Assembly (NCBI GenBank): GCA_016182485.1
Contig: JACPGH010000007.1
Location: 27,656-91,655 of the forward strand
From: Candidatus Kaiserbacteria bacterium
Lineage (GTDB): Bacteria > Patescibacteriota > Minisyncoccia > Phycocordibacterales > Phycocordibacteraceae
Direction: 5' to 3'
Length of the DNA stretch: 64,000 nucleotides
In this document: positions 18,340-37,960 of the stretch, in pieces
How the letters are laid out: every line of letters begins with the position of its first letter
How positions within the stretch are numbered: the stretch's first letter is position 1
Notes under the pieces: model-generated
What the model was told of the DNA's origin: nothing
Database searches by the model: none
The model's input: only the letters and a program-made list of their open reading frames with translations
Position numbers and translations under genes: made by a program

Positions 18340-21300
18340 TTATTGTGGCGTTGTCGAAGTTTCGGTAGCCGCGGAGAGGGGCTCGATTACTGTCACTAGC
18401 CTCGAAACCGAACCCGTGTTCCCCGCCGCGTCCGTCGCGCTGTAGGTGAGCGTGTATGAGCCGGCTGTTGCGGTATCTGCGGAACCCGAGGTCGCGATTT
18501 TTGCCGTTAGGTCTCCGTCCGTTTCATCTGTAGCGGTCGCCCCCGGGTCTGTGAAGGTCTGACCTTCACTGATCTGCATCGCCGCCTCTCCGTTCAAGGT
18601 CACGATCGGAGGTTGAGAGTCTGAATCCGGACTTATGACTTCCGACTCTGGAGTAGCGCTCGACTCTTGACTCGTGACTTGTGACTCTTGACTTGTTGTA
18701 CCGGCTACTACGCTCCCGTTGCCTACGATCACCGACCGCGTCGCCATGATGCTCCCATTCGGCCCGAGTACGCGATAGGTGATTATGTAGGTCGTCTCGC
18801 TTGAGGTATCAATAGTCCCCGGGCCGACTTCCGACTCCACGCCGTTGATATAAGTCGTTACGGGCGCACCCCCTGCATCGATTCCCGGATCAACGAAGTT
18901 CCCCCCGACCTCGATCAGATAAGGATTATCCCCGAGCACCGTAATCCATTGGGTGCTCGTGTTTGAATTGGAAATTGAAAATTGAGAATTGGAAATTTGT
19001 GACTCTGGCGTGCTTGTCGCCATCTGCCCTTCCGTCTGGATCAAGAAGTAATCGAAGGAGGTGTCTCCCGCCTGCGGGCTCTCGAGCACGAGGCGGAAGG
19101 AGCCGTCCTTCTTCTCCGCGATATACCAGGAGCCGGTCGTCGAGGCGGTGAAGGTGACGAATATCTTGGTCGAGGGCTTCACGTAGGCGTTCTGCACCTC
19201 CGCGACCGTGTTGCCGGCGATTATTTTCACCGTCCCGGCCGAGCTCGTACCGGCGGAATTCGTCGCCGCGACGAACTGGTCGGCCACGAGCGTGCCGAAC
19301 TGCGCGATGCCCTTCGCGATATAGGCGCCAAAGGCGTTAAAGGCGCTCGCGAGCGAGGTCGTCGAGAAGGAGACCGGCGAGCCGGAGGCAGAGGAGACCG
19401 CGCCGCTCTCGAGCGCCGCGAGGCGCGCCTCGAGCGAGGTGAGCCGCACCTCGGCGCGATCGACCTTCTCGGCGAGCGTCTGCACGCCCGCGAGGGTCAG
19501 GGTCGCGAGCTTGTAGAGATCCACGCCGTTGCCGTCTATCGAGAGGATCTCGGGCGCCGTCTCCCGCGCATCCTCGGCAATGAGGCCGAGCCGGAGCGGG
19601 TTGCTCCCGGCCTCTGCCGCGTAGCGATACGTCGCGACCTTGAGCCCGCGAACCTTGCCCAGCACGGCCTCGGTCGAGCTCGCGCTCATATAATTGATGT
19701 CGGTCTTGAGCGCGCGCGTCGAAGTGTTCACGAAGCTCGTCGCGCTCACTTCCTGCGCCGTGAGGCGATTGATGTAGCCCTCGTTCGTCACCGCGAGATT
19801 CGATGTCCACACGGAGGTCGAGGCGACAAAAGAATCCGCCGCTACGTTGCCATATACTGTGAACAAGCCGGCAGCTTGGTGCGGAAACGATCCTGTCACT
19901 TCGATTTCTGAGGGTTCGATTCCCTCTGCCGGCTTTTGCAGGTTTTCCACAATGCTTGCCGGGGTGCTTGACGCGTAAACCCAGTTTGCTATAATAGGTG
20001 CGGTGACAGGCTCGTTTCTCGCAGAAATCGAACCCTCGTAAGAGAACCCGAAGTAGCCGCCCGTAAGGGCGGTTATTTCGTTTTCCAGCGTCCCTACCCT
20101 CCCCGCGAGCCGCGTCGAAGTGGTGCTCAGCTCCTGTATCGCCAGTATCATCGGCGCGGCGAGGCCGTCGTAATTGATGGAGAGCGTGCCGTCGGGCGTG
20201 AGCGAGGTGGGGGCGGAAGTCTGTACGAGATCCGGGAACACCTCTCGCACCTGCTGGGCGATGAGGCCGAATTGCTTCTGGCTCGAGCGCTCCGCCGCCG
20301 GATCCCAGTAGAAAGAAACGGGCCGGAGCGCGTCGATCGCAGACAGCCCGCTCGCTGTCGCGAGCGGGCTTATATCCTGCTTCAGCCGCTCGTCAGACGC
20401 GGAGCAGGCGAGGAGGCCGTTGCCGTTAGACGTGAAGCCGGTGCAGTTCTTGTAGCCGTCGAAGGTGACGTTCGCCGTCTCCCCGCCGACTTCAAGCAGG
20501 GTCGCGGGCGTCGTAGTCCCGAGGCCTATCGCGCTCGCGCTCATGTAGATCGGCTGGACGCCGCTCCCCACGAGGCGCGAGGTGATGATGAGATTGCCGG
20601 TTGAGGCGTCGATGCCGAATTCGCCGATGTAGTTGGGGTCGGAGCCGTTGTAGATGGTCATGGCGGAAGCGCTCCCCGCGGTCGTCACGATCGAGAAGCG
20701 CTCGCTTTGTCCGCCGGGGCTTGCCGTCCCAATCCCGACATCACCGGAGTCGTCGATCACGAACGGCGTCGGGTCGCCTGCCTGGTCGTTCACGGCGAAG
20801 GAGAGCGCGGCGCTCGTATTCTCGACCGCGAACTTCGCGAACGGCGTGCTCGAGGCGATGCCGACCCGCTCGTTCGTGGCGACATAGAGCGAGGAAGTGG
20901 CGGTGAGGGTCGTACCGGTCCCCGCATAGTATGGGAACTGCCCGGCCGTGCCGGAACCGACCGTCCCTGTCCCGCTCCCGCCTCCCACGCAGACTCCGTT
21001 AATCGCAAAACATCCTGTTCGTATATCAATGCCGGAGCCGAACGTGGACGTGGCGGTCGCCGAAATGTTAATCGTATTGGCTCCCGTATCTCCAAGCGAG
21101 AGCAGCGTCCCCGGACTCGTCGTCCCGATGCCGACGTTGCCTTCTATTATCATCCCGTTAGTGGGAGCCGCCGCACCGTAATTTGTTCCCACGGAAACCC
21201 CTCCAGCAATACTCAATTTACTTCCCGGAGTAGTGGTGCCAATACCAACCCTCTGGTTGTACCCTCCAGAGACACCGCCAATAAAGAACGGCGTGTAGCT

Positions 21301-24300
21301 CGTGGAGAAATCTCTGACAGCAGCCGTGTTTTGCTCAATAGAAAAGAAATCAGTCGTATTTCCTACATGGAGCCGCCAGATACCTTCAGAAGTTGCATAA
21401 TTCTTGTTGTCCATTACGAAGTAATTGTCTCCGCCGGTTGTGGTTTGAAGAATGCTTAATGGCGTTGTCGTCCCTATGCCGACGTTGCCAGTGCTGTTTA
21501 TCACCATTTGTGTAGCATTGCCGCCTGTTCGGAAAGACATGCCTCTCGATAGCCCGTTGGGACTGTAGAAAACCCCCCCATCAGCTACGTTATTCGGGCT
21601 TCCAAACAACAAAGCTTGCTCATTAGCATTTGGAGCAAGAAGAGATAGGTAATTTGAGCCACTGTTTTCAACCGTCAGGACTGTCCCCGCAAGAGGGGTA
21701 ATCCCCGAAAATCCTCCTGTTACATGCAATTTACTCTGCGGACTCGTCGTCCCGATCCCGACGTTGCCATTCTTTATAATAGTCATGTAGTTCGAGATGG
21801 TAGAACCATCCCAGACGCCAAAGTCGAGTGCCATATTGCTGCCGCCGGGCGCCCGAGTTTGGATACGAGCGAAGTCATACCCTCCGGTGGCCGTATCGCT
21901 AAAGAGGAGCCCGATAGCATCACCGGTTTGTCCTCCAAAACCGCTCGTACCAATTTTGGCTACGCTTGTCAGGCTTCCTGCGACTCGTGTACCGGAAACA
22001 GTTAATGTATTTGTAGGCGTCGTCGTCCCGATGCCGACATTTCCGGTGCTTGCTTGAACGGTTAACTTAGGATTGCCACTGATAGACAATTGCACATCTC
22101 TGTTTGAACTTAACATCGCATATGTAGAATTGTCCGTGGAGAGATAATGGCTTTCATCACCAAAGAAAATATTCCCGGCTACTGAAAGTTTTCCTCCAGG
22201 TGCCGCCGCCCCAATCCCCACATTCCCATTCGCCAGCACGGTCATGAGGGTGGAAGTCGACGTGCCAGCAGTCGTAGAGGCGATAGTGAACAGCGGCGTG
22301 TTTACAGCGGTTCCCGCAGCGTTCGAAATCGAGAGGATTGAATACGGCGAGGTCGTCCCGATGCCCACGTTGCCGCCGCTTGTGATGCGCATTTTTTCAG
22401 AGGCATTGGTAGTAAACCCAAGATAGCTACTTCCAAAAATGCCGTAGCCAGTGAGGTTTGAAATATTTACGGCTGGAGTCTCTGCGGTACTTTGAGCTTG
22501 TTCATCAAACGAAGCCCGGCCGAAGGCGTCAATCTTAAACCATTCCTGGGCAGTCGTCAGGTCGGTACCATTTATCAAAACCGCGCCATTACCGGTAGTG
22601 CCGCGTAAAATTAGGCGAGTGTTGTTGGTCGTGGTGTTCGCTATTTCCAAATGACCGACCGGACTCGTCGTCCCGATGCCGACGTTGCCGGCAGTCGTGA
22701 TTGTTAATTTTGCGCCATCAGAAGGAACGGCGTTATTTGTCGTTATGTAGAATTTATTTTCAGAATCATCCCCGAGTCCCATTGCCCAATTCGTCGTTCC
22801 ATTTGTCTGGAATTCTAGCTCATTGTTATTGGTTACAGCTCCACGATTCAATCTCAAATAATTGTGGCTGCCGGAATCAAACCTTGAAACAAGATTCGAG
22901 CTTTTATAGACATCCAATAATACACCCGGCGTCGTTGTCCCAATCCCGACGTTGCCAGTCTGCACTATCAAAGCTGCGTGACTTGCATCAGCCATGTTTA
23001 TGTGAAGACCTCGCTGTATGCCTGCGTTTGATTGCGACCCTCCGGTTATTCTTAGACCGGTATTTATTCCGTTTGTCCCTGAGCCTGTCGTAGCGCCGGT
23101 CGTAATATCTATGCCGTAAGATTCCTGCGCATTGCCGCCGCTGTGATCTTTTCTCATGGTTGGGGTGGTAATTTGTACGCCCCTCCATGTAAAGCCGCCC
23201 GTATTCCCTAACCAATTCCCGGAGGTAATCTCGATTCCCCGAACTGTCGCGACATCGCCGCCTTGATCAAATTGGCCGGGGCTGCCTGTCTCGATCCTAG
23301 CTCCCGTGAGGGTAGCTGGCGCATTATTCATGGTGAAGGTTGGCATCTTGAGAACCAACCCTCTCTGCGTAACTCCCGAGGCATTGGTTACATTGGTATT
23401 CGCATCGAGAGTCGCAAGGTCAAAAGTAGAGCTTATAGCCGAAGGCTGTGCAACCGCCAATCTGCTTTCGGGACTCGTCGTCCCAATCCCAACATTCCCA
23501 TTCCCGTCGATCACGAAGCGGTCGTCGGTGCCTAAGGCGGATGACGACGCGATTTTGAATTTGCCTCCGTCGGAGTAATCCATGCCCATTGTCCACTTGT
23601 ACGTCGGCCCCGCGAGCGCTGATAATTCGATTGCGACGTCGTTCGCCGGCTGATAAAGAGTCAGGACTTGATTAGCGCTCGTCGTCGCAATGCTCAATTT
23701 TCCGTCACCGCTGCCAGTACCCTGCGCGGTTATGAATGGAATCGTTGCACCCACATATAGTTTAAAAACATCATTCCCTCCGCTAAGAGCCGTGTTATCC
23801 CAATCGTCGGAATTGCCTAAGTAGACAACTCCGTTCCCTCCGGTGCTTTTTGAAGAGCCTACTATGGCAATCCCAGCTGCTGAAGAGCTGCCCCACGCCC
23901 TTTCGAACAGCGCATTAAGCCAGCTGTCTGGGGTATCGGTAATACCCGCGCTTTGGGCTGTGTCGCGGACATGCAAATCCGCCCAAGGACTCGTCGTCCC
24001 GATGCCGACGTTGCCGCCGTTTGGATTTATCAACGCGCTGCGGTTATTAGCGGAATGAGCTTGCAGAGTCAAATTCCCGGTAGAGGTGTTATACAATTCG
24101 AGGTATCCATAGATAGAAGTGTTATCAAGACCTGAGCGAATTTGCTGAGAGTACGGCTGGAATATATCTCCGGCTACATGCAAGGTTGCGAGAGGACTTA
24201 CTGTTCCAATCCCAACATTGGAAGTTGTTGCCGATACAGTAAGGACATTTGTGCCAACTTGTAATGTAGCTCCGGGATTGGTAGTCCCGATGCCGACGTT

Positions 24301-27300
24301 GCCGCCGTTTGTCTGAAGAGAGAGCGGGTAGTTGACCGACTGGTCTGTGCTGTCATGTACTTGAATCCATGCAGACCACGGAGAAGTATTCAACGCACCA
24401 AAATCCATCGCAATATTATCTGTGCCGCTGAAACGTACCCGTCCGGTAGCAGTCGTCCCCGAATTAGCCGGGACACCCGCGGCTCCATTCACCTGGAGCG
24501 AAAGGGCGGGATTTGAAACGCCAATACCAACGCTTCCCCCCGCATCTATGGTAAAGGGCGTGGCGTCCGGCGACTCTGTGTCCTCCACAACGAATGAGGG
24601 ACCACTCCCTGCATTCGTTACCGAAAGCACTCCCCACGGACTCGTCGTCCCGATGCCGACGTTGCCGGAAGTGTCTATCGTCAAAGATTCTACACCGTTG
24701 GAATAGAGCGAAAGTTTTTGAGCCTTGCCATTGACATCCCCCATCTGCAAAGTGCTGCCCGATTGTGAGGCAATAATTATATTGCCCGGAGCCACCGAGA
24801 GAACATAATTGGAGGTCGCGTAGAATCCAGGAGCCGTAAGGTATCCGTTATAATCCCATCTGGCTAATTCTGATTGTGCGCTATTTTCGATTCTTATGAT
24901 TGGTCGGTTTGCTGCGTCATCTATAGTTCTAAAAACCGCGACATAGTCATTTGGAGACGCGCTCGTCGAACCGGCCACGACCAATTTCGACGTTGGATTC
25001 GTTACACCAATCCCCACGTTCCCTCCGAGGAACACCGCCGCCGGGCCAGTCGATTTCTGCTCGATAGCGAGCGTCGGATACGCCGAGGTGCTTGAGGCAG
25101 AGAGCTGGCCCCAAGGGGTGGTGGAACCGATCCCGAATTTCCCATTCGAAAGGTCAAGGGTCATTCGGGTTGTGGGCGTAAAAGCAGAATTCATCGTTAA
25201 GCCCGTATCCCCCGTAAACAAAAGTTCTCCGTTTAGCTCTCGGAGCATAGAAGCCGCCGTTCCGCGGGCAACCATAGCGGCTGCGACCTCGTCTACGTCG
25301 AAACCTAGGAATACATTTCCAGAATTGACGACGGACATTGAAATAGACCCGGGACCTGCGGCATAACCAGAATTCACAATAAATTGCGAATTAAGCCCTT
25401 GGCCCCCTCCATAATTCTGGATATTTAACAAAGCATCTGGACTCGTCGTCCCGATCCCGACGTTGCCGCCTTCCTGAATGTACATCCGCGCAGACAATGT
25501 TGCTGCACTCCCAACCGCCCCGCTTGGCGCGGTGTAAAATCCAATATCTCCAGCTCTGTTGTTATCATTAATCCCGATTGCTGCGCCACCGGCGGCTTCT
25601 ATATATTTCCAACCACTCGAATAGTAAAGGTTGCCCGCTACATTGGCTCCGGCGTTCCCACCAAAGGTCATGTCATCCCCTGATGTGGCAATATGAAGAA
25701 GATTTAGCGGACTCGTCGTCCCGATGCCGACGTTGCCAGTGCTATCAGCAATGAACATTGAATCATCTGGAGCGTTGTAGCCGATCGAAAACTTCCTTCC
25801 ACTCGTTCCTGCATCTGTCCCAAGAATTATTCTTCCAGCGTTATTACCAAAGTAAACTATCTTACCAGCTGGAGAAGATGCTGAGTCATCCAAGCGTATA
25901 TATGGAGTCGAACCAACTGCATGAATAATCTGTACAGGATTGGCGACTCCTATACCGAGTTTCCCATTAGTCCCCCCTGCAGTTGATGCTCCGACGAAAA
26001 GATCGCCTCCAATAGAGGTGAGTGCAGCCGGACTCGTCGTCCCAATGCCGACGTTGCCTGAGCCGTTTGCGTAGAGGGTGCTGGCGATCGCGACTTGAGT
26101 AGCCGAAACACTAATGGCATTATCGAGACCTGCTGCAGCAAATGCCAGAAGAGTTTTATCGTCTTTACCATCACGTATGTAGAAATTGTTACTGGTCAAG
26201 CCTCCAATGAAGCCAACCTTCCACAAAGCAGCTCCGTTCGAGTCTAATGTAAGCCCTCCATCATGGCTATTATTTGGTCTATTAAAAAGAATAGAAGCAG
26301 GGCCACCGCTAATGGAGAGTAACGCTCCCGGACTCGTCGTCCCGATGCCGACGTTGCCGTTCGCTTGCAATGTCATCACTGTAACATCCCCTGTTTTATC
26401 AAAACTGCCGCTGCTTTTGAGATTAATATCGAGGCGTGAATACGGATTGGTATCACCCACTTGGTATCGTCCGAGCGCAAATTCCGCAATATTGGGATAT
26501 GAGACACCGTCATTTACACCTCTATAGAGCTGCAGGATTCCTGCTGCTCCCACTGAAGAAGGAGCAACAGAGCCCACCACCTCAAGAGGCACCGCTGGAT
26601 TTATCGTTGGAGTTCCGATACTCACTTCGGTACCGCTTATAATCATCGCATCCGAAAATACATTTGCCCCCGTTGTGGTCTGAAACACTAACAAGGAGCA
26701 ATCATTTCCATAACAGTTACCCCCGAAAGTACCTAAAATTCTTCCAACCGACGGTGTTGGAGTCACACCTCCCGTAGGCGCAAGAAACCTGATACCCGCA
26801 CCCGGCCCATAATTTGTACCCGGTAAATCGTTCACCACCGCTATCTCGGCGCTTATATTTCCACTCCGTGTAGAAGTAGTATCGGACCGAGAAAATTCCG
26901 CAAGAAAATTCGGTATAGCTTTCCCAATCCCCACATTCCCCGCGTTCGTAATAGTAAGCGCCGCGGGGGTTGATGTCCCATACGCATCCGTCGATGTCCC
27001 GACGTACAGGTTCCCGCCCATTGAGGAAAAGAGCCAGTGTTTCAAGTTGGCACCCGCCGAAGAATCAGAGAGCGCAAAAGATGGTCGAGTGCCCGCGGCT
27101 TGCAGGAGCCAGTTCGGCGTCGTAGTCCCGATGCCGACGTTGCCGGAGTCATTGACGACCATCAGGACATTATTCGTTGCGTCTCCATCTGTTTGATGAT
27201 GGCCGATGACGAAGGCCTGGCCAGTGTTGTCATTATCAGCGTCAAGGTTGACCCGGAAACTGCCTGTGCTTGAAATCATTCCCCAACCATCAGGTCCGGT

Positions 27301-30300: not shown

Positions 30301-33300
30301 CTGGCTGTCTCCCGTATTGAGGTTGATTCCTATGCTATTAGAATTCGGATTATTAATGGTGAAAATCGAAGTCGGCCCGGGTGTAAAATCAAATCGATCG
30401 CTGCCGCCGATTTGGACAGCCCCGTTTTGCATCACTAAGAGTCCCGCATTGCCGGCCGACAGTCCCCCCGCGAACGTCGAAGTCGCCGTCGTCGAGGTCG
30501 CGGTGAAATACTGTGAGACGGTTTCCCCAACCACCGAAAGTTTGGCATAGGGACTCGTCGTCCCGATACCGACGTTGCCAGAATTTGTAATACGCATTTG
30601 CTCCGTAGCAGAAGCTCCAGTTTCGAAAAGAATATTCCCGTAGGTAGCGCTGGCGCTCGTGTTGGTAATGTGTATGTTGCCGGTACTCGGATTATAAAGA
30701 TCAATGTACGCAATGTTATCAACTCCGAGAATCTTGCTTGTACTCAGCCCTAAATTGCCGGCGAGCGTATTGGAGGAACCGTTAAGCGCCATAACGTTTG
30801 TTGCGCCAACTCTCAGATTTAACACACTGTACCCGGCAGTTTTAAGGTATGATCCACTGTTTTCCGCGCTTATTTCCGTATACCACGTGGGGTCACTTGG
30901 TAAACTTGCTCTGACGTTCGTGCCCGCCACCAATCCACCAGTGAGCGTGGAAGTGCTTGTATTCGTAACGATAAGGTTCGTCAATGTCGACGTTCCCACT
31001 GCGAGCGTGCTTGTCCCCGTTATCGCACCACCAAAAAATCCTGTGCCACTAACATAACTATTGCCATGTACGCTTAACAGAGCCGCAGGACTCGTCGTCC
31101 CGATGCCGACGTTGCCCGTGTCGCTCTTGATGGCGATGTCTGTCCTCTGGATGCTGCCATCATCCGCCGAAATCCAGAAAGCATCGTCAATGATTCGGAG
31201 AATATGTTTCTTGCTGTTCGAGTTGTCTTGGAGGACGATACCCGGATTTGTGCCGCTGCCCGGGCCTATGTGCAGAGAGGTGGTGAGTGCCGTTGCAATG
31301 CCGCTTCCTGGGCTCGCCGTCCCGATGCCGACGTTGCCGGAAGTATCAATTCTCATTCTCTCTGTAGGTGTAAAACTATTGCCAGCTGTTAGCCCGCTGT
31401 TTGTGAAGAACCGAATATTCCCCAAATAATTTTCCACTTGCGAAGCCATCGTACTCCGGGCGACATAACTACTGCCATTCCACGACATTCCTCCGGCAAT
31501 ATTGCCTTGGCTGTCCGCAGTTGAAATGAGAAAGCCGCCACTGTTAGTCCCGTCGGAACCAAACCTTATTTGAGTATTTGAGCTTGCTGTGGCTATGTCC
31601 AGCTTATAGTTTGGCCCCGCCGTCCCGATGCCGACGTTGCCGGTGCTTGTTATTCGCATCCGCTCTGCAATCGTGGAATCGGTCTGCGTTGTCGAAAATT
31701 GCAGATACCCGGCGTTAGGGTTCGATTCCATTCTTCCTGCAATTGTGGCAAAGGCTAATGCACCTGTTGCTCCGCCACCAAAACCGGAGAATCGAAGTTG
31801 AGGACCTTTATCAATTGCTGCAGCATCGCTTGAACGTAAGACTAGGGTGCCAGCAGATTCGGCTGAATTAACCACTCCACTCGCTGCCTCAACCGTTAAT
31901 TTCCCACTTGGACTCGTCGTCCCGATGCCGACGTTGCCGCTCGACAAAGTAGTGCCAGTACCATCGATCCCCGTACCATAAATGAGATTGCCAATATTAA
32001 GAATATTTGATGAGGTGACCGCCGGAGCATCAATGTCGTAGCCTAGGATGATATTCCGCGAACCAGTCGTAAGCGCATCTCCTGCCTGATAGCCCAGGAG
32101 AATATTCCCCCCGCCGTAGGTGATGGCATTCCCCGCATTGTAACCAAGCGCTACGTTCCCTTCGGTATCATTGGAGGGGCCGGTAATCATATTAAGCAGA
32201 GCCTGATAGCCGATGGCGACTTGATTTGAAGAGCTCGTCGCTGTTTGAAGCGCACTCTGTCCCATTGCGATGTTGTAGCTACCCGTCGTATTGCTCAAGA
32301 GGACATTTACACCGATGCCGATGTTTGACGCTCCACTCGTATTCGCTGACATAGCACTTCTGCCGACAGCCGTATTGAAATCGCCCGTCACGATCGCGCC
32401 GCCAATCGCGTTACTACCGACAGCTGTATTATATGCGCCTGTGGAAATATGGTAGCCTGCTTGAAGTCCCAGACCAGTATTTTCGACACCCGTGGTATCG
32501 GCTAAGGCGTATGCTCCCAAAGCGGTAAGGCCATCTGTCGTGACATTGCTATTTAACGCTGATGTGCCTATAGCTACGTTATTGCTTGCAGTAGTAAGGG
32601 AGGCACCCGCCAAATAGCCCAAGACTGAATTATTGTTTCCTGTGGTCAAACTCTTCAAACCATAGCGTCCGATCGCGATATTAGAAGTTCCAGTGGTAAT
32701 ACTAGAAAGAACCAAGTCGCCGCCAATGCCAATATTGTAAGTTCCGGTCAAGGTCGTGTTTCCAGCCGGCGCACCGTTCGTGCCAATCATGAGATTGCCG
32801 GTACCGTAAGAGTCAATCCACCTGTTGTCTCCCATCTTTATTTGACCAACTGCTGTAGTTGTAACCGGAAGACGGAAGTTCCCAGTAATTTCTAATTGCT
32901 CCGCCGGCGTCGTCGTCCCGATGCCGACGTTGCCCGCGCTCGTTACTGTGAGATACGGCGTGACCGTATCACTCGAGGAGGCGATGCGGAAGAGGTCCGA
33001 GGTCTGGCCGCTCCAGCCCTGGACGAAGAGCGTCGAGGTGGCGGAGGTGAGCGAGGCGTCTTGTATATAGAGCGGCTGATTGAATTCAAAGCGCTTGCTC
33101 GACGTGGCGGCGTTCCAGGCCAGCTGAGCGTTCGGCGAACTGCTGCCGCGCGCGAACACTAGGTAGGCGCTCTCTTGATCTGCGGATGTGTTATCAGAAT
33201 TGACAGTGAGCGTCTCTGCCTGCACATTGCCGCCGACTATAGTGCCCACCACGGTGACCGCGCTCACTTCGTTGGCGTAGATTTTATCGAAGCGCACAGA

Positions 33301-36300
33301 CGGCGTGCCGATGTCCTGTGTGCCGTCAAGCGCTTCGATGTTGCCCGTGATGATGTTGGAGCCGATGCGGAGCGTCCCGCCAGCGGCGACGATGTCGTGA
33401 TTGCCCGTACCGGTGAAGGTGAGGCCCGATCCGGCGCCGTCTATCGTCACGCCGCCGTTCAAGAGCGACGCGCCGTTGACCGAGAACTTTGACGATGGGG
33501 TTGAAGTCCCTATGCCGACGTTGCCATCCGAGTCGATGATGAAAGGAGTGGAATCGGGAGAAGCAGTATCCTCTACGACAAAGGAAGGGAAACTATTATC
33601 GCCATTGGTCACGCTCAACTTCCCCCATGGAGTCGTTGTGCCAACACCGGCCGCCGATTTGCTTCGAGTGAGTGATAGAACCGTATTAACAACACCTCCC
33701 AGGGCCCGCTCGATATGCAGGTCTCCGCCGTTTGTATCCACTGCGGTCGTCGAGACGCGGAATCCCCAGGTCTGACGACCGCCGGTGAGCGAATCGCCCA
33801 AAGTAAGCACTTGATTAGAGCCAGCCGTGTCACCTCCCGAGGTAAGGATATTCAGCGCGCCAAGTGGAGCCTGTGTCCCTATTCCCACCCTCCCATTCGC
33901 GAGTACGGTCACGAGCGTGCTCGTCGAAGTGCCGGCAGTCGTAGACGCGATAGTGAAGAGCGGCGTGTCTACAGCCGTCGACGCAGAATTTGAGATCGAC
34001 AGGAGGGAGTAGGGAGAAGTCGTCCCGATGCCGACATTTCCTGCCGTATCGATGCGCATGCGCTCGAGATTGTTCGTGCCGAAGACGACAGGGTTATTCG
34101 AGGTAGCGCCGAAAGCGACTATGCCGCCCGCATCGGCCATATTTCCCTTGAACAATACGGAGTTGTTAAGTTGTAGCGCACCGAATAGATTCCCCGTCTG
34201 CGTCGTGCCATACACATCGACCGCGCCATAGGAGTTCCCGTCGTTTTGAATAGAGACTTGGGTCCTGCTATTGGGATCCGCCCCGGTTATCGCCACCTGC
34301 GTCTGCCCACTACCCGAACCGAGGATATCCAGCAATCTTGTGGGTACAGCTTTGCCGATACCGATCTTGCCGTTCGCGAGCACGGTCATGAGGGTCGAAG
34401 TCGAGGTGCCGCCGGTGGTCGAGGCGATGGTGAACAAGGGCGTGTTGACCGTTGTTTGTTGGCTGTTTGAAATTGAGAGAAGCGAATATGGAGAAGTGGT
34501 CCCGATACCGACGTTTACGGCGTTCGCGCCCGTGCCTCCCAGCACGAGAGAGTTGCTCGCGCCGACGATTGCGTTCGCGCCGATAGCCGTAGCGTTTGTC
34601 AAAGTACTCGAAGCCGCATCGGCCAAGTGGCCCAAGAACGTATTGTAGGTTCCTGTTGTGTTAGTCCAGCCTGCATAAGTCCCGAAGGCTGCGTTATTAC
34701 TACCAGTGGTGTTGTAGCGTAAAGAACGATATCCATAACCAGCGTTGAAGTTACCGGTCGTATTTACCGAGGCGGCTTGATAGCCCGCTACGGTGTTGTA
34801 ATCGCCAGTCGTGTTTGCATCTAACACAAGACTGCCAAGGGCCGTGTTGTAGCTGCCGGTCGTATTGGCGGTGAGAACCTGCAAACCGAGCGCCGTATTG
34901 TGCCTGCCCGTCGTATTTACTGGCAGAGTGTATCCGCCTATTGCCGTGTTGTAATCGCCCGTCGTGTTCGCATTGAGCGCGAGATTGCCGATCGCGGTGT
35001 TATATAGCCCGGTAGTGTTAGCGGTCAGCGTGTTCGCGCCGATGCCCGTGTTCTGCGTCCCGGTCATCGTGAAGTTGCCCGCGTCGAGGCCGAGGAATGT
35101 GTTGTCCGTGCCGTAATTGTGGAGGAAGCGCATCGAGTTGACGTATACGCCGCCGGCCGTCGCGGTCGAAGAGGCGAGGACGAGATTGCCGCTAAACGTA
35201 GTCCCGCCTGTGATAGTGAGCCGGCCGAAGGTGGCCTCCGCCGCCGCGACCGAGATGCCGTTCGTGAGCGTGCTCCTGTCGAAAGTCCCGCCGCCGAAGG
35301 TGCCGTTATTGATGGTCAGATTATCGAGCTTTTCGATTCTCGCCACTTGCTGAATGGTCGTGATATTGGTCGCGGTCTGTCGCGAGATTGGCGAGAGCAT
35401 GCCGCCGACGGTGGAGAGAATGTCGTTTTTGAGCGCATTGAGCGAGAGCGTAACGTAGTCCTGTGTGACGCCCTCGACGACGGTGGTGTAGAAGTTGGAG
35501 GCTGGTTGCTGGAGGCTGGTTACTGGAATGATGTAGGCGCTAGCCGGAGCGGAGGCGACAACCGGGGTGGAGCTTGCCGTGCCCTTCGTAGCCTTTGTCG
35601 CAGGCTTAGGCGAAGTAGGGGAGCTTGCCGTGCCCTTCGTAGCCTTTGTCGCAGGCTTAGGCGAAGTAGGGCTATATACGATGACGGGCGCTGGTGCGGG
35701 GTTCAAAAGATACGCGAGGCCGCTCGCCCCGTTAGAAATCAGATTTCTAACGGGGCTGGTCGCAGAGTCCCAAAAATTGTTGATCGCTCGGTAGGTCGTA
35801 AGCGCGACTTTTTCTCCGGCCGAGAGCTGGGAGATGACGGCGGCGACGGGAGTGCCTTCGCGGTTCATATTTTCAAGAAGAGCAGGACCCTTGCCGCGCG
35901 TCGCCTCGTACGCGCCGACGATGGTTCTGCCGACCGCGCTGAATATCTGCGGGTCATTCACCATCTCGCTGAACCTTCGAGGAGCGAGTGTGAGCGGCTG
36001 GGCGGCTGCGACACCCGCATACGCGAGGTCCCCGGTCCCGGTAACGAGGGCGAGATATCGGTCGGAAGCGAAGGCGGTCGCGCCGACGAAGCGGTGCGCG
36101 AGCGCGTACTCGGCGTCGAATACCGCCTGAGCGATTCTCGGCCCTGCTTCGCTCACGCTACGCAGGGCGAGCCCGGCTTTTTCTGGCGTTTTGATAGTAG
36201 CGGCGACAGTCGCCCGCGCGAGCAGATCGCCTGTATTCCCGACGAGCGCCACGGTGGCGCGCCCTGCTTCGTTAAAACTACGCAGGGCAAGAGCGCTTAC

Positions 36301-37398
36301 TTCAGGTGCGGCAGTGGCGGGTACATACGCGAGCGAGACGTCCGCCTGGATCGCCGCATGCGTGAGATCGATGACTGCATTGCCGAACGCGAGATTCACG
36401 CGATTGACGAAGGATGGGGAAGCGGCCAGCGCATCGCGCGCCGTCGCCGCGAAAGCGAGCGCTTCTCTCCCCGAGACATCGAGGAGCGATCGATACGTCG
36501 AAAATATTTTCTCGACCGCGCCGTACGAGTTCTCGCCAAGCGCGAGGTACTGCTCTTTGCCGACGCGCGCCACGTTTGCGGGCGCATGCAGGATAGCGCC
36601 TCGCATGCGCTCCGGAGAAGAGAGGAACGCGAATGTCTCGAGGATACTGTCCTCGAGAAGCTGGGCTTCGCTCGCAGACAATTCACGCGAAGTAATAGGA
36701 GAAGTGCCGCGCCCGCCGCTCGCCCCGTTAGAAATCAGATTTCTAACTGGGCGGGCATCAAGCTTCAGTACGAACAGTGGCGAAAGAGAGATGTCCTTAA
36801 TCTCTGACGTCGCATATGTCCTATGTGCATCCTCTGATTTGGTCGTATTCCTAAAGGACGCCGATTTACGCTGGTTCAGATCCGCGGATATCCTCTGATA
36901 TGGATCCGCGCTAATCTCCCGGAAGCCGAAAGCGACGACGCGCGCGAACGAACCGAGAGCGCGTGCTGCCTGCGGAATGATCGGGGTCTGCGCGGCGAAA
37001 GCCGCTCCGGTTACCACGAACGCGGCTACCGAAAGCGCGGCGAGTTGAGAACGCCATCCGCTAAACGCAGATGATCGCAGATCTAAATCCGCGGATATCC
37101 GCTGATTCAATTTGGCGGAAATCCGCTTATACATCTGCGGAATCCGCGCAGCATGCCGGTGTGAGCGATATTCAGCTTCGCGCGCGCGCGCGAGCGCGCG
37201 CGAATAATCAGACTTACGCGCTTCCTGCCGGTCAAGGAAGCGGATAAGAGACTCTCTGCCGACGAACCAGCTGTGGCCGATCTTTTTTCCGGAAATTTTC
37301 CCGCTGCGGACTAGACGCGCGAGGTAATCGGAAGTATATCCGGACAGCTCTCCAGCATCCTTTGTCGTGATCAGATTTCCGTTAAGAGAAGGATCCAT
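18340..37398 (-). CDS. Giant (6352 aa) membrane-anchored fibre/adhesin-like protein: N-terminal cytoplasmic HTH_17 (MerR/excisionase-type) domain, one TM helix, ~6000-aa extracellular region with YadA-head-like NTAIG/NTTG repeats and dozens of phage-tail-fibre-like GNVGIGTTSP repeats, two tandem peptidase-S74-like intramolecular chaperone domains, and C-terminal DUF5011-like Ig domains
   Basis: Uninterrupted 19,059-nt ORF. N-terminal motif ITTKDAGELSGYTSDYLARLVRSGKISGKKIGHSWFV. TM segment WRSQLAALSVAAFVVTGAAFAA. ggactcgtcgtcccgatgccgacgttgcc (GNVGIGTTSP on the minus strand) recurs throughout. CSASDERLKQDI…FYW…GLIAQQV…MILAIQEL matches the S74 autoproteolytic chaperone. PPIVTLNGEAAMQISEGQTFTDPGATATDETDGDLT…TDAAGN matches DUF5011. 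Confidence 0.8.
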   Translation of the reverse strand: MDPSLNGNLITTKDAGELSGYTSDYLARLVRSGKISGKKIGHSWFVGRESLIRFLDRQEARKSDYSRALARAREAEYRSHRHAARIPQMYKRISAKLNQRISADLDLRSSAFSGWRSQLAALSVAAFVVTGAAFAAQTPIIPQAARALGSFARVVAFGFREISADPYQRISADLNQRKSASFRNTTKSEDAHRTYATSEIKDISLSPLFVLKLDARPVRNLISNGASGGRGTSPITSRELSASEAQLLEDSILETFAFLSSPERMRGAILHAPANVARVGKEQYLALGENSYGAVEKIFSTYRSLLDVSGREALAFAATARDALAASPSFVNRVNLAFGNAVIDLTHAAIQADVSLAYVPATAAPEVSALALRSFNEAGRATVALVGNTGDLLARATVAATIKTPEKAGLALRSVSEAGPRIAQAVFDAEYALAHRFVGATAFASDRYLALVTGTGDLAYAGVAAAQPLTLAPRRFSEMVNDPQIFSAVGRTIVGAYEATRGKGPALLENMNREGTPVAAVISQLSAGEKVALTTYRAINNFWDSATSPVRNLISNGASGLAYLLNPAPAPVIVYSPTSPKPATKATKGTASSPTSPKPATKATKGTASSTPVVASAPASAYIIPVTSLQQPASNFYTTVVEGVTQDYVTLSLNALKNDILSTVGGMLSPISRQTATNITTIQQVARIEKLDNLTINNGTFGGGTFDRSTLTNGISVAAAEATFGRLTITGGTTFSGNLVLASSTATAGGVYVNSMRFLHNYGTDNTFLGLDAGNFTMTGTQNTGIGANTLTANTTGLYNTAIGNLALNANTTGDYNTAIGGYTLPVNTTGRHNTALGLQVLTANTTGSYNTALGSLVLDANTTGDYNTVAGYQAASVNTTGNFNAGYGYRSLRYNTTGSNNAAFGTYAGWTNTTGTYNTFLGHLADAASSTLTNATAIGANAIVGASNSLVLGGTGANAVNVGIGTTSPYSLLSISNSQQTTVNTPLFTIASTTGGTSTSTLMTVLANGKIGIGKAVPTRLLDILGSGSGQTQVAITGADPNSRTQVSIQNDGNSYGAVDVYGTTQTGNLFGALQLNNSVLFKGNMADAGGIVAFGATSNNPVVFGTNNLERMRIDTAGNVGIGTTSPYSLLSISNSASTAVDTPLFTIASTTAGTSTSTLVTVLANGRVGIGTQAPLGALNILTSGGDTAGSNQVLTLGDSLTGGRQTWGFRVSTTAVDTNGGDLHIERALGGVVNTVLSLTRSKSAAGVGTTTPWGKLSVTNGDNSFPSFVVEDTASPDSTPFIIDSDGNVGIGTSTPSSKFSVNGASLLNGGVTIDGAGSGLTFTGTGNHDIVAAGGTLRIGSNIITGNIEALDGTQDIGTPSVRFDKIYANEVSAVTVVGTIVGGNVQAETLTVNSDNTSADQESAYLVFARGSSSPNAQLAWNAATSSKRFEFNQPLYIQDASLTSATSTLFVQGWSGQTSDLFRIASSSDTVTPYLTVTSAGNVGIGTTTPAEQLEITGNFRLPVTTTAVGQIKMGDNRWIDSYGTGNLMIGTNGAPAGNTTLTGTYNIGIGGDLVLSSITTGTSNIAIGRYGLKSLTTGNNNSVLGYLAGASLTTASNNVAIGTSALNSNVTTDGLTALGAYALADTTGVENTGLGLQAGYHISTGAYNTAVGSNAIGGAIVTGDFNTAVGRSAMSANTSGASNIGIGVNVLLSNTTGSYNIAMGQSALQTATSSSNQVAIGYQALLNMITGPSNDTEGNVALGYNAGNAITYGGGNILLGYQAGDALTTGSRNIILGYDIDAPAVTSSNILNIGNLIYGTGIDGTGTTLSSGNVGIGTTSPSGKLTVEAASGVVNSAESAGTLVLRSSDAAAIDKGPQLRFSGFGGGATGALAFATIAGRMESNPNAGYLQFSTTQTDSTIAERMRITSTGNVGIGTAGPNYKLDIATASSNTQIRFGSDGTNSGGFLISTADSQGNIAGGMSWNGSSYVARSTMASQVENYLGNIRFFTNSGLTAGNSFTPTERMRIDTSGNVGIGTASPGSGIATALTTSLHIGPGSGTNPGIVLQDNSNSKKHILRIIDDAFWISADDGSIQRTDIAIKSDTGNVGIGTTSPAALLSVHGNSYVSGTGFFGGAITGTSTLAVGTSTLTNLIVTNTSTSTLTGGLVAGTNVRASLPSDPTWYTEISAENSGSYLKTAGYSVLNLRVGATNVMALNGSSNTLAGNLGLSTSKILGVDNIAYIDLYNPSTGNIHITNTSASATYGNILFETGASATEQMRITNSGNVGIGTTSPYAKLSVVGETVSQYFTATSTTATSTFAGGLSAGNAGLLVMQNGAVQIGGSDRFDFTPGPTSIFTINNPNSNSIGINLNTGDSQSAFVNFSRSSAVKWGLGLPYSASDNFVISKGNAPAEDSSAVFTILSSNNNVGIGTTSPNNNLQVVSGAAGSAPLAITNTSDNYTVRVTSSGALPYWQFTNAAVSAVVNAGIDASSLNLGRGNVQIIGSDTPTASTIPARLYVVGDGTNPAAIFNTGNIGIGTTTPSARLDIVPTTVPSQTYAPIMILESRLANGYSEQGGYIGFRQVDVGNNVVTNDAARIVAVHDNFQAEQGDTGLSFWTTPANLSVAERVRISSTGNVGIGTTTPGVLLDVVKNSTSDNGTIFPTVRVRNLSTSDKSYAQFQVDVAGGGVTSYWQGEGVGTGKLGTPGAFIGTYTNHPFAFVTNDSEKMRLTAGGNLGIGETAPGSKLSVSGGATIGASYDTTVAPTNGLIVEGNVGIGTTSPYSLLSISNSAGTTVNTPLFTIASTTAGNSTSTLMTVLANGNVGIGTAAPGYTLDVTKSEPGNYVANFYNSNTTNGSHGMYVNVAQGSNTNALVVATEGTPRLTVNSTGVVSGGNFTTTSGYIGYDVNHNLNWTGSAYRLLSNADPITFVGAYELMRITAAGLVGIGSTTPWGQLSASSTSAYPTLAIEQKSTGPAAVFLGGNVGIGTTSPASLFSVHGNGLFSGNITAANITATGTLTAANISTTGYLSTSNAAVGGDDWYISAGDSGHLGFFKDSTAVSTNGKMVLTTGGLLGVGGGLNTATVPAEELEVYSSSGVTAIRITGDSNQGAPELQFNMRNGVANQAKIVGSSGESHNSPELQFYVNTGADSTNTLVQRMTINDLGKVGIGTTSPYSLLSISNSAGTTANTPLFTIASTTGGTSTSTLMTVLANGRVGIGTAGPSTLFDIVSNSSATSTIRQFLTSDAGPALQLIHARGTASAPSATCGVDCSSDTLGQIDFMGYDGSAYQTGARIIAEAAGNGSWSPGGLGTSLVFYGVDTNTSSLAERMRFQPNSTVEFFGLGASGLSLTGSQMIVSSSFRFGYGGTTQDGYVPATGPDGWGMISSTGSFRVNLDADNDNTGQAFVIGHHQTDGDATNNVLMVVNDSGNVGIGTTTPNWLLQAAGTRPSFALSDSSAGANLKHWLFSSMGGNLYVGTSTDAYGTSTPAALTITNAGNVGIGKAIPNFLAEFSRSDTTSTRSGNISAEIAVVNDLPGTNYGPGAGIRFLAPTGGVTPTPSVGRILGTFGGNCYGNDCSLLVFQTTTGANVFSDAMIISGTEVSIGTPTINPAVPLEVVGSVAPSSVGAAGILQLYRGVNDGVSYPNIAEFALGRYQVGDTNPYSRLDINLKSSGSFDKTGDVTVMTLQANGNVGIGTTSPGALLSISGGPASILFNRPNNSHDGGLTLDSNGAALWKVGFIGGLTSNNFYIRDGKDDKTLLAFAAAGLDNAISVSATQVAIASTLYANGSGNVGIGTTSPAALTSIGGDLFVGASTAGGTNGKLGIGVANPVQIIHAVGSTPYIRLDDSASSPAGKIVYFGNNAGRIILGTDAGTSGRKFSIGYNAPDDSMFIADSTGNVGIGTTSPLNLLHIATSGDDMTFGGNAGANVAGNLYYSSGWKYIEAAGGAAIGINDNNRAGDIGFYTAPSGAVGSAATLSARMYIQEGGNVGIGTTSPDALLNIQNYGGGQGLNSQFIVNSGYAAGPGSISMSVVNSGNVFLGFDVDEVAAAMVARGTAASMLRELNGELLFTGDTGLTMNSAFTPTTRMTLDLSNGKFGIGSTTPWGQLSASSTSAYPTLAIEQKSTGPAAVFLGGNVGIGVTNPTSKLVVAGSTSASPNDYVAVFRTIDDAANRPIIRIENSAQSELARWDYNGYLTAPGFYATSNYVLSVAPGNIIIASQSGSTLQMGDVNGKAQKLSLYSNGVESLTIDTSGNVGIGTTSPWGVLSVTNAGSGPSFVVEDTESPDATPFTIDAGGSVGIGVSNPALSLQVNGAAGVPANSGTTATGRVRFSGTDNIAMDFGALNTSPWSAWIQVHDSTDQSVNYPLSLQTNGGNVGIGTTNPGATLQVGTNVLTVSATTSNVGIGTVSPLATLHVAGDIFQPYSQQIRSGLDNTSIYGYLELYNTSTGNLTLQAHSANNRSALINPNGGNVGIGTTSPWADLHVRDTAQSAGITDTPDSWLNALFERAWGSSSAAGIAIVGSSKSTGGNGVVYLGNSDDWDNTALSGGNDVFKLYVGATIPFITAQGTGSGDGKLSIATTSANQVLTLYQPANDVAIELSALAGPTYKWTMGMDYSDGGKFKIASSSALGTDDRFVIDGNGNVGIGTTSPESRLAVAQPSAISSTFDLATLDANTNVTNASGVTQRGLVLKMPTFTMNNAPATLTGARIETGSPGQFDQGGDVATVRGIEITSGNWLGNTGGFTWRGVQITTPTMRKDHSGGNAQESYGIDITTGATTGSGTNGINTGLRITGGSQSNAGIQRGLHINMADASHAALIVQTGNVGIGTTTPGVLLDVYKSSNLVSRFDSGSHNYLRLNRGAVTNNNELEFQTNGTTNWAMGLGDDSENKFYITTNNAVPSDGAKLTITTAGNVGIGTTSPVGHLEIANTTTNNTRLILRGTTGNGAVLINGTDLTTAQEWFKIDAFGRASFDEQAQSTAETPAVNISNLTGYGIFGSSYLGFTTNASEKMRITSGGNVGIGTTSPYSILSISNAAGTAVNTPLFTIASTTAGTSTSTLMTVLANGNVGIGAAAPGGKLSVAGNIFFGDESHYLSTDNSTYAMLSSNRDVQLSISGNPKLTVQASTGNVGIGTTTPTNTLTVSGTRVAGSLTSVAKIGTSGFGGQTGDAIGLLFSDTATGGYDFARIQTRAPGGSNMALDFGVWDGSTISNYMTIIKNGNVGIGTTSPQSKLHVTGGFSGITPLAGTVLTVENSGSNYLSLLAPNANEQALLFGSPNNVADGGVFYSPNGLSRGMSFRTGGNATQMVINSTGNVGIGTTTPLSILQTTTGGDNYFVMDNKNYATSEGIWRLHVGNTTDFFSIEQNTAAVRDFSTSYTPFFIGGVSGGYNQRVGIGTTTPGSKLSIAGGVSVGTNYGAAAPTNGMIIEGNVGIGTTSPGTLLSLGDTGANTINISATATSTFGSGIDIRTGCFAINGVCVGGGSGTGTVGSGTAGQFPYYAGTGTTLTATSSLYVATNERVGIASSTPFAKFAVENTSAALSFAVNDQAGDPTPFVIDDSGDVGIGTASPGGQSERFSIVTTAGSASAMTIYNGSDPNYIGEFGIDASTGNLIITSRLVGSGVQPIYMSASAIGLGTTTPATLLEVGGETANVTFDGYKNCTGFTSNGNGLLACSASDERLKQDISPLATASGLSAIDALRPVSFYWDPAAERSSQKQFGLIAQQVREVFPDLVQTSAPTSLTPDGTLSINYDGLAAPMILAIQELSTTSTRLAGRVGTLENEITALTGGYFGFSYEGSISARNEPVTAPIIANWVYASSTPASIVENLQKPAEGIEPSEIEVTGSFPHQAAGLFTVYGNVAADSFVASTSVWTSNLAVTNEGYINRLTAQEVSATSFVNTSTRALKTDINYMSASSTEAVLGKVRGLKVATYRYAAEAGSNPLRLGLIAEDARETAPEILSIDGNGVDLYKLATLTLAGVQTLAEKVDRAEVRLTSLEARLAALESGAVSSASGSPVSFSTTSLASAFNAFGAYIAKGIAQFGTLVADQFVAATNSAGTSSAGTVKIIAGNTVAEVQNAYVKPSTKIFVTFTASTTGSWYIAEKKDGSFRLVLESPQAGDTSFDYFLIQTEGQMATSTPESQISNSQFSISNSNTSTQWITVLGDNPYLIEVGGNFVDPGIDAGGAPVTTYINGVESEVGPGTIDTSSETTYIITYRVLGPNGSIMATRSVIVGNGSVVAGTTSQESQVTSQESSATPESEVISPDSDSQPPIVTLNGEAAMQISEGQTFTDPGATATDETDGDLTAKIATSGSADTATAGSYTLTYSATDAAGNTGSVSRLVTVIEPLSAATETSTTPQ
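18548..18570. repeat. Fifth copy of the REP palindrome (tgtgaaggtctgaccttcac), lying in frame inside the C-terminal DUF5011-like domain of the giant gene
   Basis: Identical 19-bp palindrome to the REPtron flanks. Encodes SEGQTFT. Confidence 0.7.
35567..35690. repeat. Perfect ~62-bp tandem duplication inside the giant gene (encodes SPTSPKPATKATKGTASS x2)
   Basis: ggagcttgccgtgcccttcgtagcctttgtcgcaggcttaggcgaagtaggg appears twice in succession. Confidence 0.85.
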
Positions 37399-37839: not shown

Positions 37840-37960
37840 GCCACTGCGCACAATATGAGATTGCATATATTGTGCGCACACATGCTTATCTCATAGAATA
37901 GATCTCCCTCAAGGAGATGAAATGCACAATATATATAGTATGTGACCTATACTTTCCCTT
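37840..37960. promoter_or_regulatory. AT-rich upstream region of the giant gene with operator-like inverted repeats (GCGCACAATAT / ATATTGTGCGC half-sites x3; hairpin atctccctcaaggagat)
   Basis: gcgcacaatatgagattgcatatattgtgcgc palindrome at 37845-37878, a further half-site gcacaatatatat at 37923-37935, and TATA-like hexamers. Confidence 0.4.

Follow-up and report, generated by a model that had tools for sequence, protein, structure and literature searches.

A 6352-residue tail-fibre-like protein with an N-terminal helix-turn-helix domain, and its apparently undescribed family in the Patescibacteria

The DNA discussed here is a stretch of 64,000 nucleotides (nt; the window) from contig JACPGH010000007.1 of Candidatus Kaiserbacteria, which belongs to the Patescibacteria (candidate phyla radiation, CPR). 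A single unbroken open reading frame (ORF) without internal stop fills 19 kb of its minus strand. The encoded giant protein starts with a helix-turn-helix (HTH) domain and a hydrophobic segment, continues as a long region that resembles phage tail fibres, and ends with two Peptidase_S74 and two immunoglobulin (Ig)-like domains. The gene has a chromosomal, housekeeping setting. It is a member of a widespread and apparently undescribed Patescibacteria family (Kaiserbacteria/Paceibacteria), which comes with a conserved partner gene and a conserved promoter. The features of the locus, with residue numbers (aa) counted along the giant protein unless stated otherwise, are as follows.

18340..37398, minus strand: giant ORF, 6352 aa, ATG start at 37398, stop codon 18340-18342.
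37225..37374, minus strand: excisionase/MerR-type winged HTH domain, aa 9-58, predicted to be cytoplasmic (Pfam, AlphaFold2, Foldseek, invariant residues).
37075..37221, minus strand: long basic helix from the HTH domain to the membrane segment, aa 60-108 (AlphaFold2 helix 48-108; QRISAD-type repeats, repeat family D8).
36988..37047, minus strand: single hydrophobic segment, aa 118-137 (Kyte-Doolittle maximum 1.83; AlphaFold2 helix 112-137; A133-F134-A135 at its end).
35704..36975, minus strand: Ala-rich helical juxtamembrane region, aa 142-565 (conserved in relatives, BLASTP E 1e-20 to 1e-44; all-helical in AlphaFold2).
35524..35703, minus strand: Pro/Thr/Lys-rich linker, aa 566-625 (perfect 51-nt tandem duplication at 35569-35670).
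34576..35085, minus strand: block I, 17-residue N-T-A-x-G / N-T-T-G repeats, aa 772-941 (autocorrelation 0.48 at lag 17; PHROG).
31999..32781, minus strand: block II, 17-residue repeats, aa 1540-1800 (autocorrelation peak at lag 17).
20704..34521, minus strand: fibre body, aa 960-5565, at least 41 modules ending in G-N-V-G-I-G-T-T-S-P-x-x-x-L at uneven spacing (31-332 aa).
20224..20397, minus strand: Peptidase_S74 intramolecular chaperone domain 1, aa 5668-5725 (Ser5668 and Lys5673 in SDERLK).
19549..19722, minus strand: Peptidase_S74 domain 2, aa 5893 to about 5950 (Ser5893 and Lys5898 in STRALK; Pfam in two stretches, motif, BLAST to relatives).
18994..19401, minus strand: conserved domain of about 135 residues without family match, aa 6000-6135 (BLASTP E 1e-30 to 1e-67 in relatives).
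18724..18993, minus strand: Ig-like domain 1 (PF16403 type), aa about 6136-6225 (Pfam in two stretches; BLAST to relatives).
18388..18600, minus strand: Ig-like domain 2 (PF16403), aa 6267-6337 (Pfam; PDB sequence matches 2KPN and 4MB3).
37399..37474, minus strand: conserved promoter/leader of the giant gene (TTATCCACA box at 37466-37474; near-invariant positions -31 to -1 at 37399-37429).
38022..38795, minus strand: partner gene, 257 aa, with an N-terminal HTH domain, an acidic linker and a C-terminal transmembrane (TM) helix at its own aa about 209-233 (Pfam, BLASTP, Kyte-Doolittle).

The first-pass annotation, made from the letters of the window alone, had described this gene as a single ORF of 6352 codons and had listed its domains in N-to-C order. 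Both the ORF and the order of the inventory are confirmed. At the C-terminus, the Peptidase_S74 profile (PF13884) scores 88.4 bits against a cut-off of 22 and matches in two stretches, the first of which covers profile positions 1-57 of 58. The S-D-x-x-x-K motif is complete in the first domain, and the second retains the serine and the lysine with the aspartate replaced by threonine, so that the Ser/Lys pair is intact in both of the predicted domains. A short coiled coil (aa about 5965-6000), with a weak coiled-coil match to DUF7310, precedes the conserved domain that follows. PF16403, formerly DUF5011, matches in two stretches as well, with 104.8 bits against a cut-off of 27, in agreement with the DUF5011-like Ig domains first claimed.

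The fibre contains 41 G-x-[VIL]-G-I-G motifs, which bears out the earlier count of at least 40 GNVGIGTTSPxxxL copies. Tail-fibre and tail-spike families of PHROG, among them tail fibre families 9942 and 18345, match every tile of the fibre with E-values of 1e-30 to 1e-44. Block I matches virion structural protein and tail spike families at about 1e-35. The sole PDB sequence match of the fibre is Bd2133 of Bdellovibrio (8OND, E 7.7e-9). The likeness to tail fibres is thus well founded. The description of the short repeats as YadA-head-like 14-mers had to be abandoned. The Asn/Gly/Thr-rich repeats are superficially similar to the YadA heads of trimeric autotransporter adhesins, but their period is 17 and not 14, and the protein has no C-terminal beta-barrel anchor. 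Between aa 651 and 5500, no Pfam family was found at E<=1, Hep_Hag included, and NCBIfam likewise gave none.

At the other end of the protein, Pfam HTH_17 (PF12728) matches aa 9-58 with an E-value of 1.5e-4 and 22.4 bits, and the same profile hit is precomputed for several relatives. A PHROG excisionase family matches the N-terminus at 4.6e-5. AlphaFold2, run with an alignment of 17 sequences, predicts aa 10-70 with a pLDDT (predicted local distance difference test) of 95-98 and a strand-helix-helix-strand-strand-helix order (strand 9-11, helices 12-19 and 23-32, strands 37-40 and 43-47, then a long helix 48-108). The top matches of this model in a Foldseek search of the PDB are TraN, Pukovnik Xis, RdfS, BldC, RacA, GlnR and MtaN, all DNA binders of the excisionase/MerR type. 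The superposition on Pukovnik Xis has a TM-score of 0.71 on the target and a root-mean-square deviation of 1.7 A. Foldseek probabilities are 0.95-1.0 (TraN, Xis, RdfS, BldC), and the E-values are weak (0.03-0.3) because the domain comprises only about 50 residues. In the family alignment, the HTH domain is the best-conserved stretch of the N-terminus, with R28, L29, R31, K34 and G41 invariant. The assignment to MerR/excisionase HTH_17 in the first-pass annotation therefore stands as far as the strand-HTH-wing fold is concerned, whereas the curated profile cut-off is missed.

Beyond the HTH domain, AlphaFold2 predicts only helices of low confidence for aa 1-660 (mean pLDDT 49). The basic helix is encoded by a region with a period-24 tandem repeat at 37086-37147. 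Around the hydrophobic segment, at 36858-37147, the palindrome-containing short repeat GGATATCCGCGGAT, which encodes QRISAD, is present in three copies. One further copy, at 38467-38489, lies in the linker of the small HTH-TM neighbour, and the repeat is missing from relatives at the matching alignment positions. The juxtamembrane region, aa 142-565, is predicted as all helix with pLDDT values of 30-65, and is probably a stalk. A PDB sequence search with aa 1-650 gave nothing useful. The giant has eight cysteines, arranged as four close pairs, all in the part predicted to be exported.

The hydrophobic segment contains the top Kyte-Doolittle 19-mer of the whole protein. Lysines and arginines are more frequent on its N-terminal than on its C-terminal side, with 23 against 15 in 117 residues and 6 against 4 in 30 residues. 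Its short core is followed by S-G-A and then by A-x-A/S in 66 of 77 relatives. It could serve as a signal anchor, or it could form the core of a signal peptide with an N-terminal extension. Owing to the signal-peptide-like layout, the tether between HTH domain and fibre may not be permanent. If signal peptidase I cut after A-x-A/S, the HTH domain would not hold the fibre, which would either be set free or stay attached through the helical stalk. With every exported molecule, a membrane stub bearing the HTH domain would remain, with a layout like that of the small neighbour, and intramembrane proteolysis could free this stub as an export-coupled regulator. The interruption of the short core by S-G-A, the R/K residues before it and the frequent A-x-A/S after it all fit such a cleavage, as does the exact HTH-linker-TM layout of the neighbour. 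However, an n-region of about 110 residues with a folded domain is far outside the range of known signal peptides, and no site-2 protease gene was seen among the window ORFs that were scanned. We regard cleavage as possible, if somewhat unlikely.

The giant is not an isolated oddity. In a scan of one genome per species, 80 loci with an ORF that starts with the HTH domain were found, so that at least 80 species carry the family, all of them in Patescibacteria, with labels of Kaiserbacteria, Paceibacterota, Minisyncoccia or Patescibacteria. In most of the 80 loci the ORF runs off the contig or the 10-kb flank, and in ten it has at least 3400 residues. Thirteen ORFs stop inside the locus, five with 126-956 and eight with 1080-3229 residues. 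A profile search of 1.84 billion representatives returned 197 clusters at E<1e-30, with members of up to 7214 residues and the module always at residue 1. Complete relatives (2000-7214 aa) share the N-to-C architecture, with one or two S74 domains, the conserved domain and Ig-like domains. A hydrophobic segment follows the HTH domain in the same ORF for 165 of the 174 HTH matches in the loci, and several relatives carry two tandem HTH domains in front of it. The literature search turned up no paper on the family, the partner gene, the promoter or the peptide motif, which is not proof of absence. The earlier claim of an undescribed architecture may hold in this sense, but the architecture belongs to a conserved family with a fixed partner gene and promoter.

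The partner gene lies directly upstream on the same strand. Its product scores 26.1 bits with HTH_17 (E 1e-5), its TM helix reaches a Kyte-Doolittle value of 2.25, and its HTH domain is paralogous to the N-terminus of the giant (BLASTP E 6e-10). An orthologue is found in the same place and orientation in about 75 of the 80 loci, with 35-46% identity over the full length. No further copy of the giant/partner HTH domain is present in the window. Two paralogous membrane-tethered HTH proteins encoded side by side could also mean that the domain is a protein-protein module, which docks the base of the fibre to a cytoplasmic partner or to the small paralogue and thereby positions or clusters fibres. 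There is a precedent in RodZ, the cytoplasmic HTH domain of which binds MreB, and the HTH score below the Pfam threshold would be in line with such a role. Nevertheless, the fold and the conserved basic residues match those of DNA-binding excisionase/MerR domains, and the tandem HTH duplication in relatives resembles the DNA-binding TraN. A role in protein docking in place of DNA binding is therefore unlikely, though a live alternative.

The wider gene neighbourhood is housekeeping in character. Upstream of the giant and its partner are the genes for GatB, Obg, SecA, a Wzy_C-TPR protein and sugar-nucleotide enzymes, and the order Wzy/SecA/Obg/GatB/small HTH/giant is kept in about 75 species. 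Downstream are genes for GAPDH, ribulose-phosphate epimerase, a split transketolase, a PfkB kinase, RecG and malic enzyme. The transketolase (13152-15209, minus strand) is encoded by two ORFs, one for the N-terminal thiamine pyrophosphate-binding part and one for the pyrimidine-binding and C-terminal part; judging from the ORF table, the gene is split and not broken by a frameshift artefact. The strong PHROG matches could suggest that the giant is the tail-fibre gene of a prophage and not a cellular surface protein, all the more as the exact 29-nt coding unit described below recurs in at least 120 contigs of IMG/VR. However, housekeeping genes flank the giant on both sides in a gene order that is shared by many species, no phage genes adjoin it, its N-terminus includes a membrane segment, and a conserved promoter of its own precedes it. 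An origin as phage cargo is thus extremely improbable.

The integrity of the ORF deserves separate comment, because the public record presents it differently. Its only annotated part, MBI2410207.1 ("DUF5011 domain-containing protein"), consists of the last 519 residues (18340-19899), from an internal GTG start. The identical upstream neighbour is MBI2410213.1, with five accession numbers between the two, and ORFs in alternative frames within the giant gene do not explain the split annotation. In NCBI, both proteins carry the name Candidatus Kaiserbacteria bacterium and belong to a 123-kb contig. The single ORF could thus be an artefact of assembly or curation, a chimera, a collapsed repeat array or a decaying pseudogene. 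Short-read contigs from Logan break off at aa 227, and no independent assembly of the whole gene was found in them or in the metagenome scan, which gave only relatives of up to 65% identity. On the other hand, the frame is free of stops over 19 kb, and the same N- and C-terminus are joined within one ORF in many independent genomes (2690, 2732, 3115, 3655, 3939, 4883 and 7214 aa, among others). The first-pass annotation had itself raised the possibility of a collapsed repeat assembly. The longest exact repeat within the ORF is 52 nt, and all k-mers of at least 55 nt are unique, so that collapse or mis-joining of repeats by the assembler is unlikely. Altogether, we consider an artefact or a pseudogene very unlikely, and the giant is taken as an intact gene.

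The ORF also contains two in-frame copies (35727-35755 and 36723-36751) of a near-perfect 29-nt palindrome, CCCCGTTAGAAATCAGATTTCTAACGGGG, both of which encode PVRNLISNGASG (aa 217 and 549). The first copy coincides with the break in the Logan contigs. The palindrome core was found once more, in a related locus (L031, 8108-8132), where it lies outside the giant gene. It could be a small mobile palindromic element that is able to reside within coding sequence.

The 620-nt spacer between the partner and the giant gene is not conserved, save for its last 80 nt or so, which are more conserved than the proteins. In an alignment of 67 loci anchored at the ATG, positions -31 to -1 read AAGTTATTATTTAGTTAATTCGGnTATCCGAC, mostly with 90-100% identity. 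T-28, A-27 and T-23 of the sequence TATTAT are invariant, as expected for a sigma-70 -10 hexamer. If TATTAT has this role, the leader is about 16 nt long and lacks a Shine-Dalgarno sequence. The -10 is flanked by an imperfect inverted repeat, GCCGAAAT ... AATTCGGC, which in the window takes the form GCCGAAAT...AATTCGGT. Further upstream, a TTATCC[AC]CA box occurs in 63 of the 67 loci and starts either at -69 or at -78/-79, the two classes being about one helical turn apart. A scan of 82 loci (L005-L086) for a 28-nt pattern of the leader, with up to five substitutions allowed, gave a single occurrence in each of 66 loci. In the window, the sole occurrence is right before the ATG of the giant. 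Conservation as an RNA structure was considered and rejected, as pair counts show no compensatory changes in the leader and there is no credible Rfam match. Since compensatory changes are absent, the conservation is treated as that of a promoter or operator at the DNA level.

The near-invariant promoter/leader is the obvious candidate operator for the HTH proteins. However, TTATCCACA equals what we take to be the canonical DnaA-box consensus, and the promoter may therefore be controlled by DnaA and not by the HTH domains, a live alternative. In 1.09 Mb of loci, TTATCCACA occurs 116 times, almost always at the giant promoter or at a site 6.3-8 kb upstream. In the window, this second perfect copy (44836-44844) heads another conserved promoter/leader just upstream of SecA (44650-44850, minus strand). 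About 40 nt past it lies a -10-like GATACT (GATAAT in most relatives), and the leader continues with TAGAAACGTTTG, a hairpin, CAGACGGGTCGACATATCA, a very basic ORF of 15 codons, MAKKKAKKKASKKRK (44697-44650), and a terminator-like hairpin. The arrangement of TTATCCACA, leader and MAKKKAKKKASKKRK is kept in about 55 related loci and matches no Rfam family. Within the spacer upstream of the giant, a perfect 12-nt inverted repeat, TGCGCACAATAT / ATATTGTGCGCA, with 10 nt between the arms and a third, 11-nt copy 48 nt away, is found at 37845-37934, in an unconserved part about 450-540 nt from the ATG.

The fibre modules are alike not only as protein. The 29-nt unit GGCAACGTCGGCATCGGGACGACGAGTCC occurs in the window in 9 exact copies and 11 more within three mismatches, where none is expected, and all of them are located in the giant ORF on the sense strand. 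Among 28 GNVGIGT copies, pairwise codon identity (synonymous choice) is 0.63-0.93, compared to 0.26-0.51 expected from the codon usage of the ORF. The near-identical DNA unit reported in the first-pass annotation is therefore real, and its synonymous sites are far more uniform than codon usage predicts. The giant genes of other species use the same 29-nt consensus, including one gene at 47% G+C. Across 29 species, the exact 29-mer is present in 29 of 93 GNVGIGTTSP copies. The rare codons GGG and AGT reach 61% and 60% in the motif copies, but 13% and 10% elsewhere in the genes.

The picture in viruses is mixed. The exact 29-mer is found in at least 120 IMG/VR contigs, whereas a synonymous control built from commoner codons is found in four. 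In a codon-unbiased viral sample of GNVGIGTT, the 29-mer occurs in only 3 of 138 copies, and codons follow genome G+C. The idea that the unit is universal in viral tail-fibre genes was rejected on these numbers. They indicate that codon homogeneity characterises the giant family together with some viral or viral-labelled contigs, and not the motif in general. The contigs with a viral label (L098-L217) mostly carry the unit in ORFs of 350-1500 residues. They may stem from phages of Patescibacteria or from other viruses, or may be cellular sequence that was misclassified. Among 80 such loci examined, G+C ranges from 0.29 to 0.60, and several contig names carry the label GVMAG. The remaining motif copies of these contigs keep the same codons, also where the contig is AT-rich. 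Concerted evolution is the most economical explanation that we can offer for the unit. In-frame modules of the same gene or of different genomes would recombine or undergo gene conversion, with the unit as their shared homology block. In T-even phages, adhesin modules of tail-fibre genes are swapped via conserved motifs.

The closest characterised relatives of the giant are the mosaic adhesive trimer (MAT) fibres of Bdellovibrio and phage tail fibres. The S74 subgroup of the MAT fibres includes Bd3182 and Bd2133, the latter with the structure 8OND (Caulton et al. 2024, PMC10769870). MAT fibres act as surface adhesins, with which Bdellovibrio bacteriovorus handles another bacterium (PMC10769870). 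Solved MAT fibres and other S74 proteins share the capping-loop consensus V-G-G/N-pi-x-x-P-x-x-x-L, and the catalytic motif of S74 is SDxxxK (PMC10769870). Like the MAT proteins, the giant is encoded by a cell, has the capping-loop motif and a C-terminal S74 domain with SDxxxK, and would form a tail-fibre-like trimeric beta-helix. Its fibre region, with the 41 motif copies and the 8OND match, can be counted among the MAT fibres. Its N-terminus cannot, as it has an HTH domain, a helix, a hydrophobic segment and a helical region in place of the MAT signal peptide and beta-rich domain of about 130 residues (PMC10769870). MAT proteins are also much shorter (about 1000 residues compared to 6352). 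Further differences are the two S74 domains that are followed by other domains, the fixed partner gene and the Patescibacteria host, which has no outer membrane.

Phage fibres and tailspikes, such as the K1F endosialidase and the T5 L-shaped fibre pb1, share with the giant the succession of triple beta-helix repeats and Peptidase_S74. The phage S74 domain brings about trimerisation of the fibre, after which it cleaves itself off at the Ser/Lys dyad. It normally ends the fibre protein, whereas the giant continues beyond it. Moreover, phage fibres occur as soluble components of the virion, with a few hundred to about 1500 residues, and none is known to have an N-terminal HTH domain or membrane segment. 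With respect to these N-terminal features, the giant resembles ToxR, TcpP, CadC and RodZ, which combine an N-terminal cytoplasmic HTH domain with a single membrane segment and an extracytoplasmic domain. The ToxR-like proteins have OmpR-type winged helices and small sensor domains, RodZ has an Xre-type HTH domain, and we know of no giant fibre in any of the four. For the giant, the ToxR-like layout fits in its HTH domain, single hydrophobic segment and external part, and a conserved candidate operator exists, but the type of DNA-binding domain differs and the segment may be cleaved.

To our knowledge, no characterised protein other than MYRF joins a DNA-binding domain, S74 and a membrane segment within a single chain. 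In MYRF, the DNA-binding domain comes before S74 and the TM segment after it, and S74 cleavage sets a DNA-binding trimer free. In the giant, the order is HTH, TM segment, fibre and S74, and the DNA-binding folds of the two proteins are unrelated. As the S74 cut of the giant would occur beyond the membrane, it cannot release the HTH domain as it does in MYRF. The S74 loop motif has been linked to MYRF before (PMC10769870).

Taken together, the giant is probably a surface fibre of the phage tail-fibre and Bdellovibrio MAT kind, which is assembled with the help of S74 and in which the HTH domain couples fibre production to transcription. According to this model, the N-terminal 117 residues with the winged HTH domain and the basic helix would stay in the cytoplasm, and aa 118-137 would drive the co-translational Sec export of the remaining 6200 or so residues. 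Outside the cell, the two S74 chaperone domains may nucleate trimerisation, after which the triple beta-helix modules, each closed by a GNVGIGTTSPxxxL loop, would fold. The Ser/Lys dyads would cut at Ser5668 and perhaps at Ser5893. The former cut would free a C-terminal piece with the chaperones, the conserved domain and the Ig-like domains. Extrapolation from Bd3182, which has 922 residues and is 550 A long (PMC10769870), gives a fibre of roughly 0.3 um for about 5000 residues. Such a fibre could reach and bind another cell or a surface. An attachment role has also been proposed for other giant surface proteins of the CPR (PMC8080830).

In the cytoplasm, the HTH domain and the small HTH-TM paralogue would most likely bind DNA and so couple fibre production to transcription. 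For the HTH domain of the giant, a DNA-binding, regulatory role is favoured because of its fold, its conserved basic residues, the tandem duplication in relatives, the tethered paralogue and the adjoining candidate operator. The two readings offered by the first-pass annotation, a membrane-tethered regulator and an attachment organelle, are both tentative.

Several observations weigh against this model. The HTH_17 score of the giant stays below the gathering score of 27, and the promoter with its DnaA-type box may answer to another protein. The positive-inside signal of the hydrophobic segment is moderate, at 6 versus 4 lysines and arginines in the 30-residue flanks, and the segment looks like a cleavable signal peptide. 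A cut at the first S74 domain would detach the Ig-like domains, which is odd for an adhesin at the tip of a fibre; they may stay bound non-covalently, the first S74 domain may not cut, or the piece may be a released factor. Finally, the public record annotates the ORF only as its last 519 residues, and the N-terminal 250 residues of the giant are absent from the protein collection at 100% identity.

A more far-reaching version of the model is that the fibre reports on itself. The HTH domain at the root and the small paralogue would bind the promoter/leader of the giant, and the 29-nt units would serve as in-frame recombination linkers. Beneath an assembled fibre, the root HTH domain would act as a trimer; alternatively, it would act as the stub that remains after signal-peptide-like cleavage. 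We hold this combination to be distinctly doubtful. If it were true, export, assembly or host contact of the product of a 19-kb gene would feed back on its own transcription, and modules could be rearranged inside the gene and traded with other Patescibacteria as well as with viruses that carry the 29-nt unit.

The Patescibacteria account for a large share of bacterial diversity. Most of them are believed to live in attachment to other cells, but little is known of the molecules that make the contact. The family has been hidden by public labels such as "helix-turn-helix domain-containing protein, partial", "DUF5011 domain-containing protein" or "tail fiber domain-containing protein". Its genes are among the largest in their genomes and have a fixed chromosomal place, a fixed partner and a promoter that is more conserved than the protein. 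The conservation of the 29-nt coding unit at synonymous sites across species is a separate puzzle, which bears on the evolution of tail-fibre genes. The parts of the giant have a biochemistry that is known from phages and Bdellovibrio, and the protein lends itself to experiments on how a DNA-binding-type domain may be connected to a surface organelle. The giant family is thus a concrete, conserved candidate for cell contact in the Patescibacteria.

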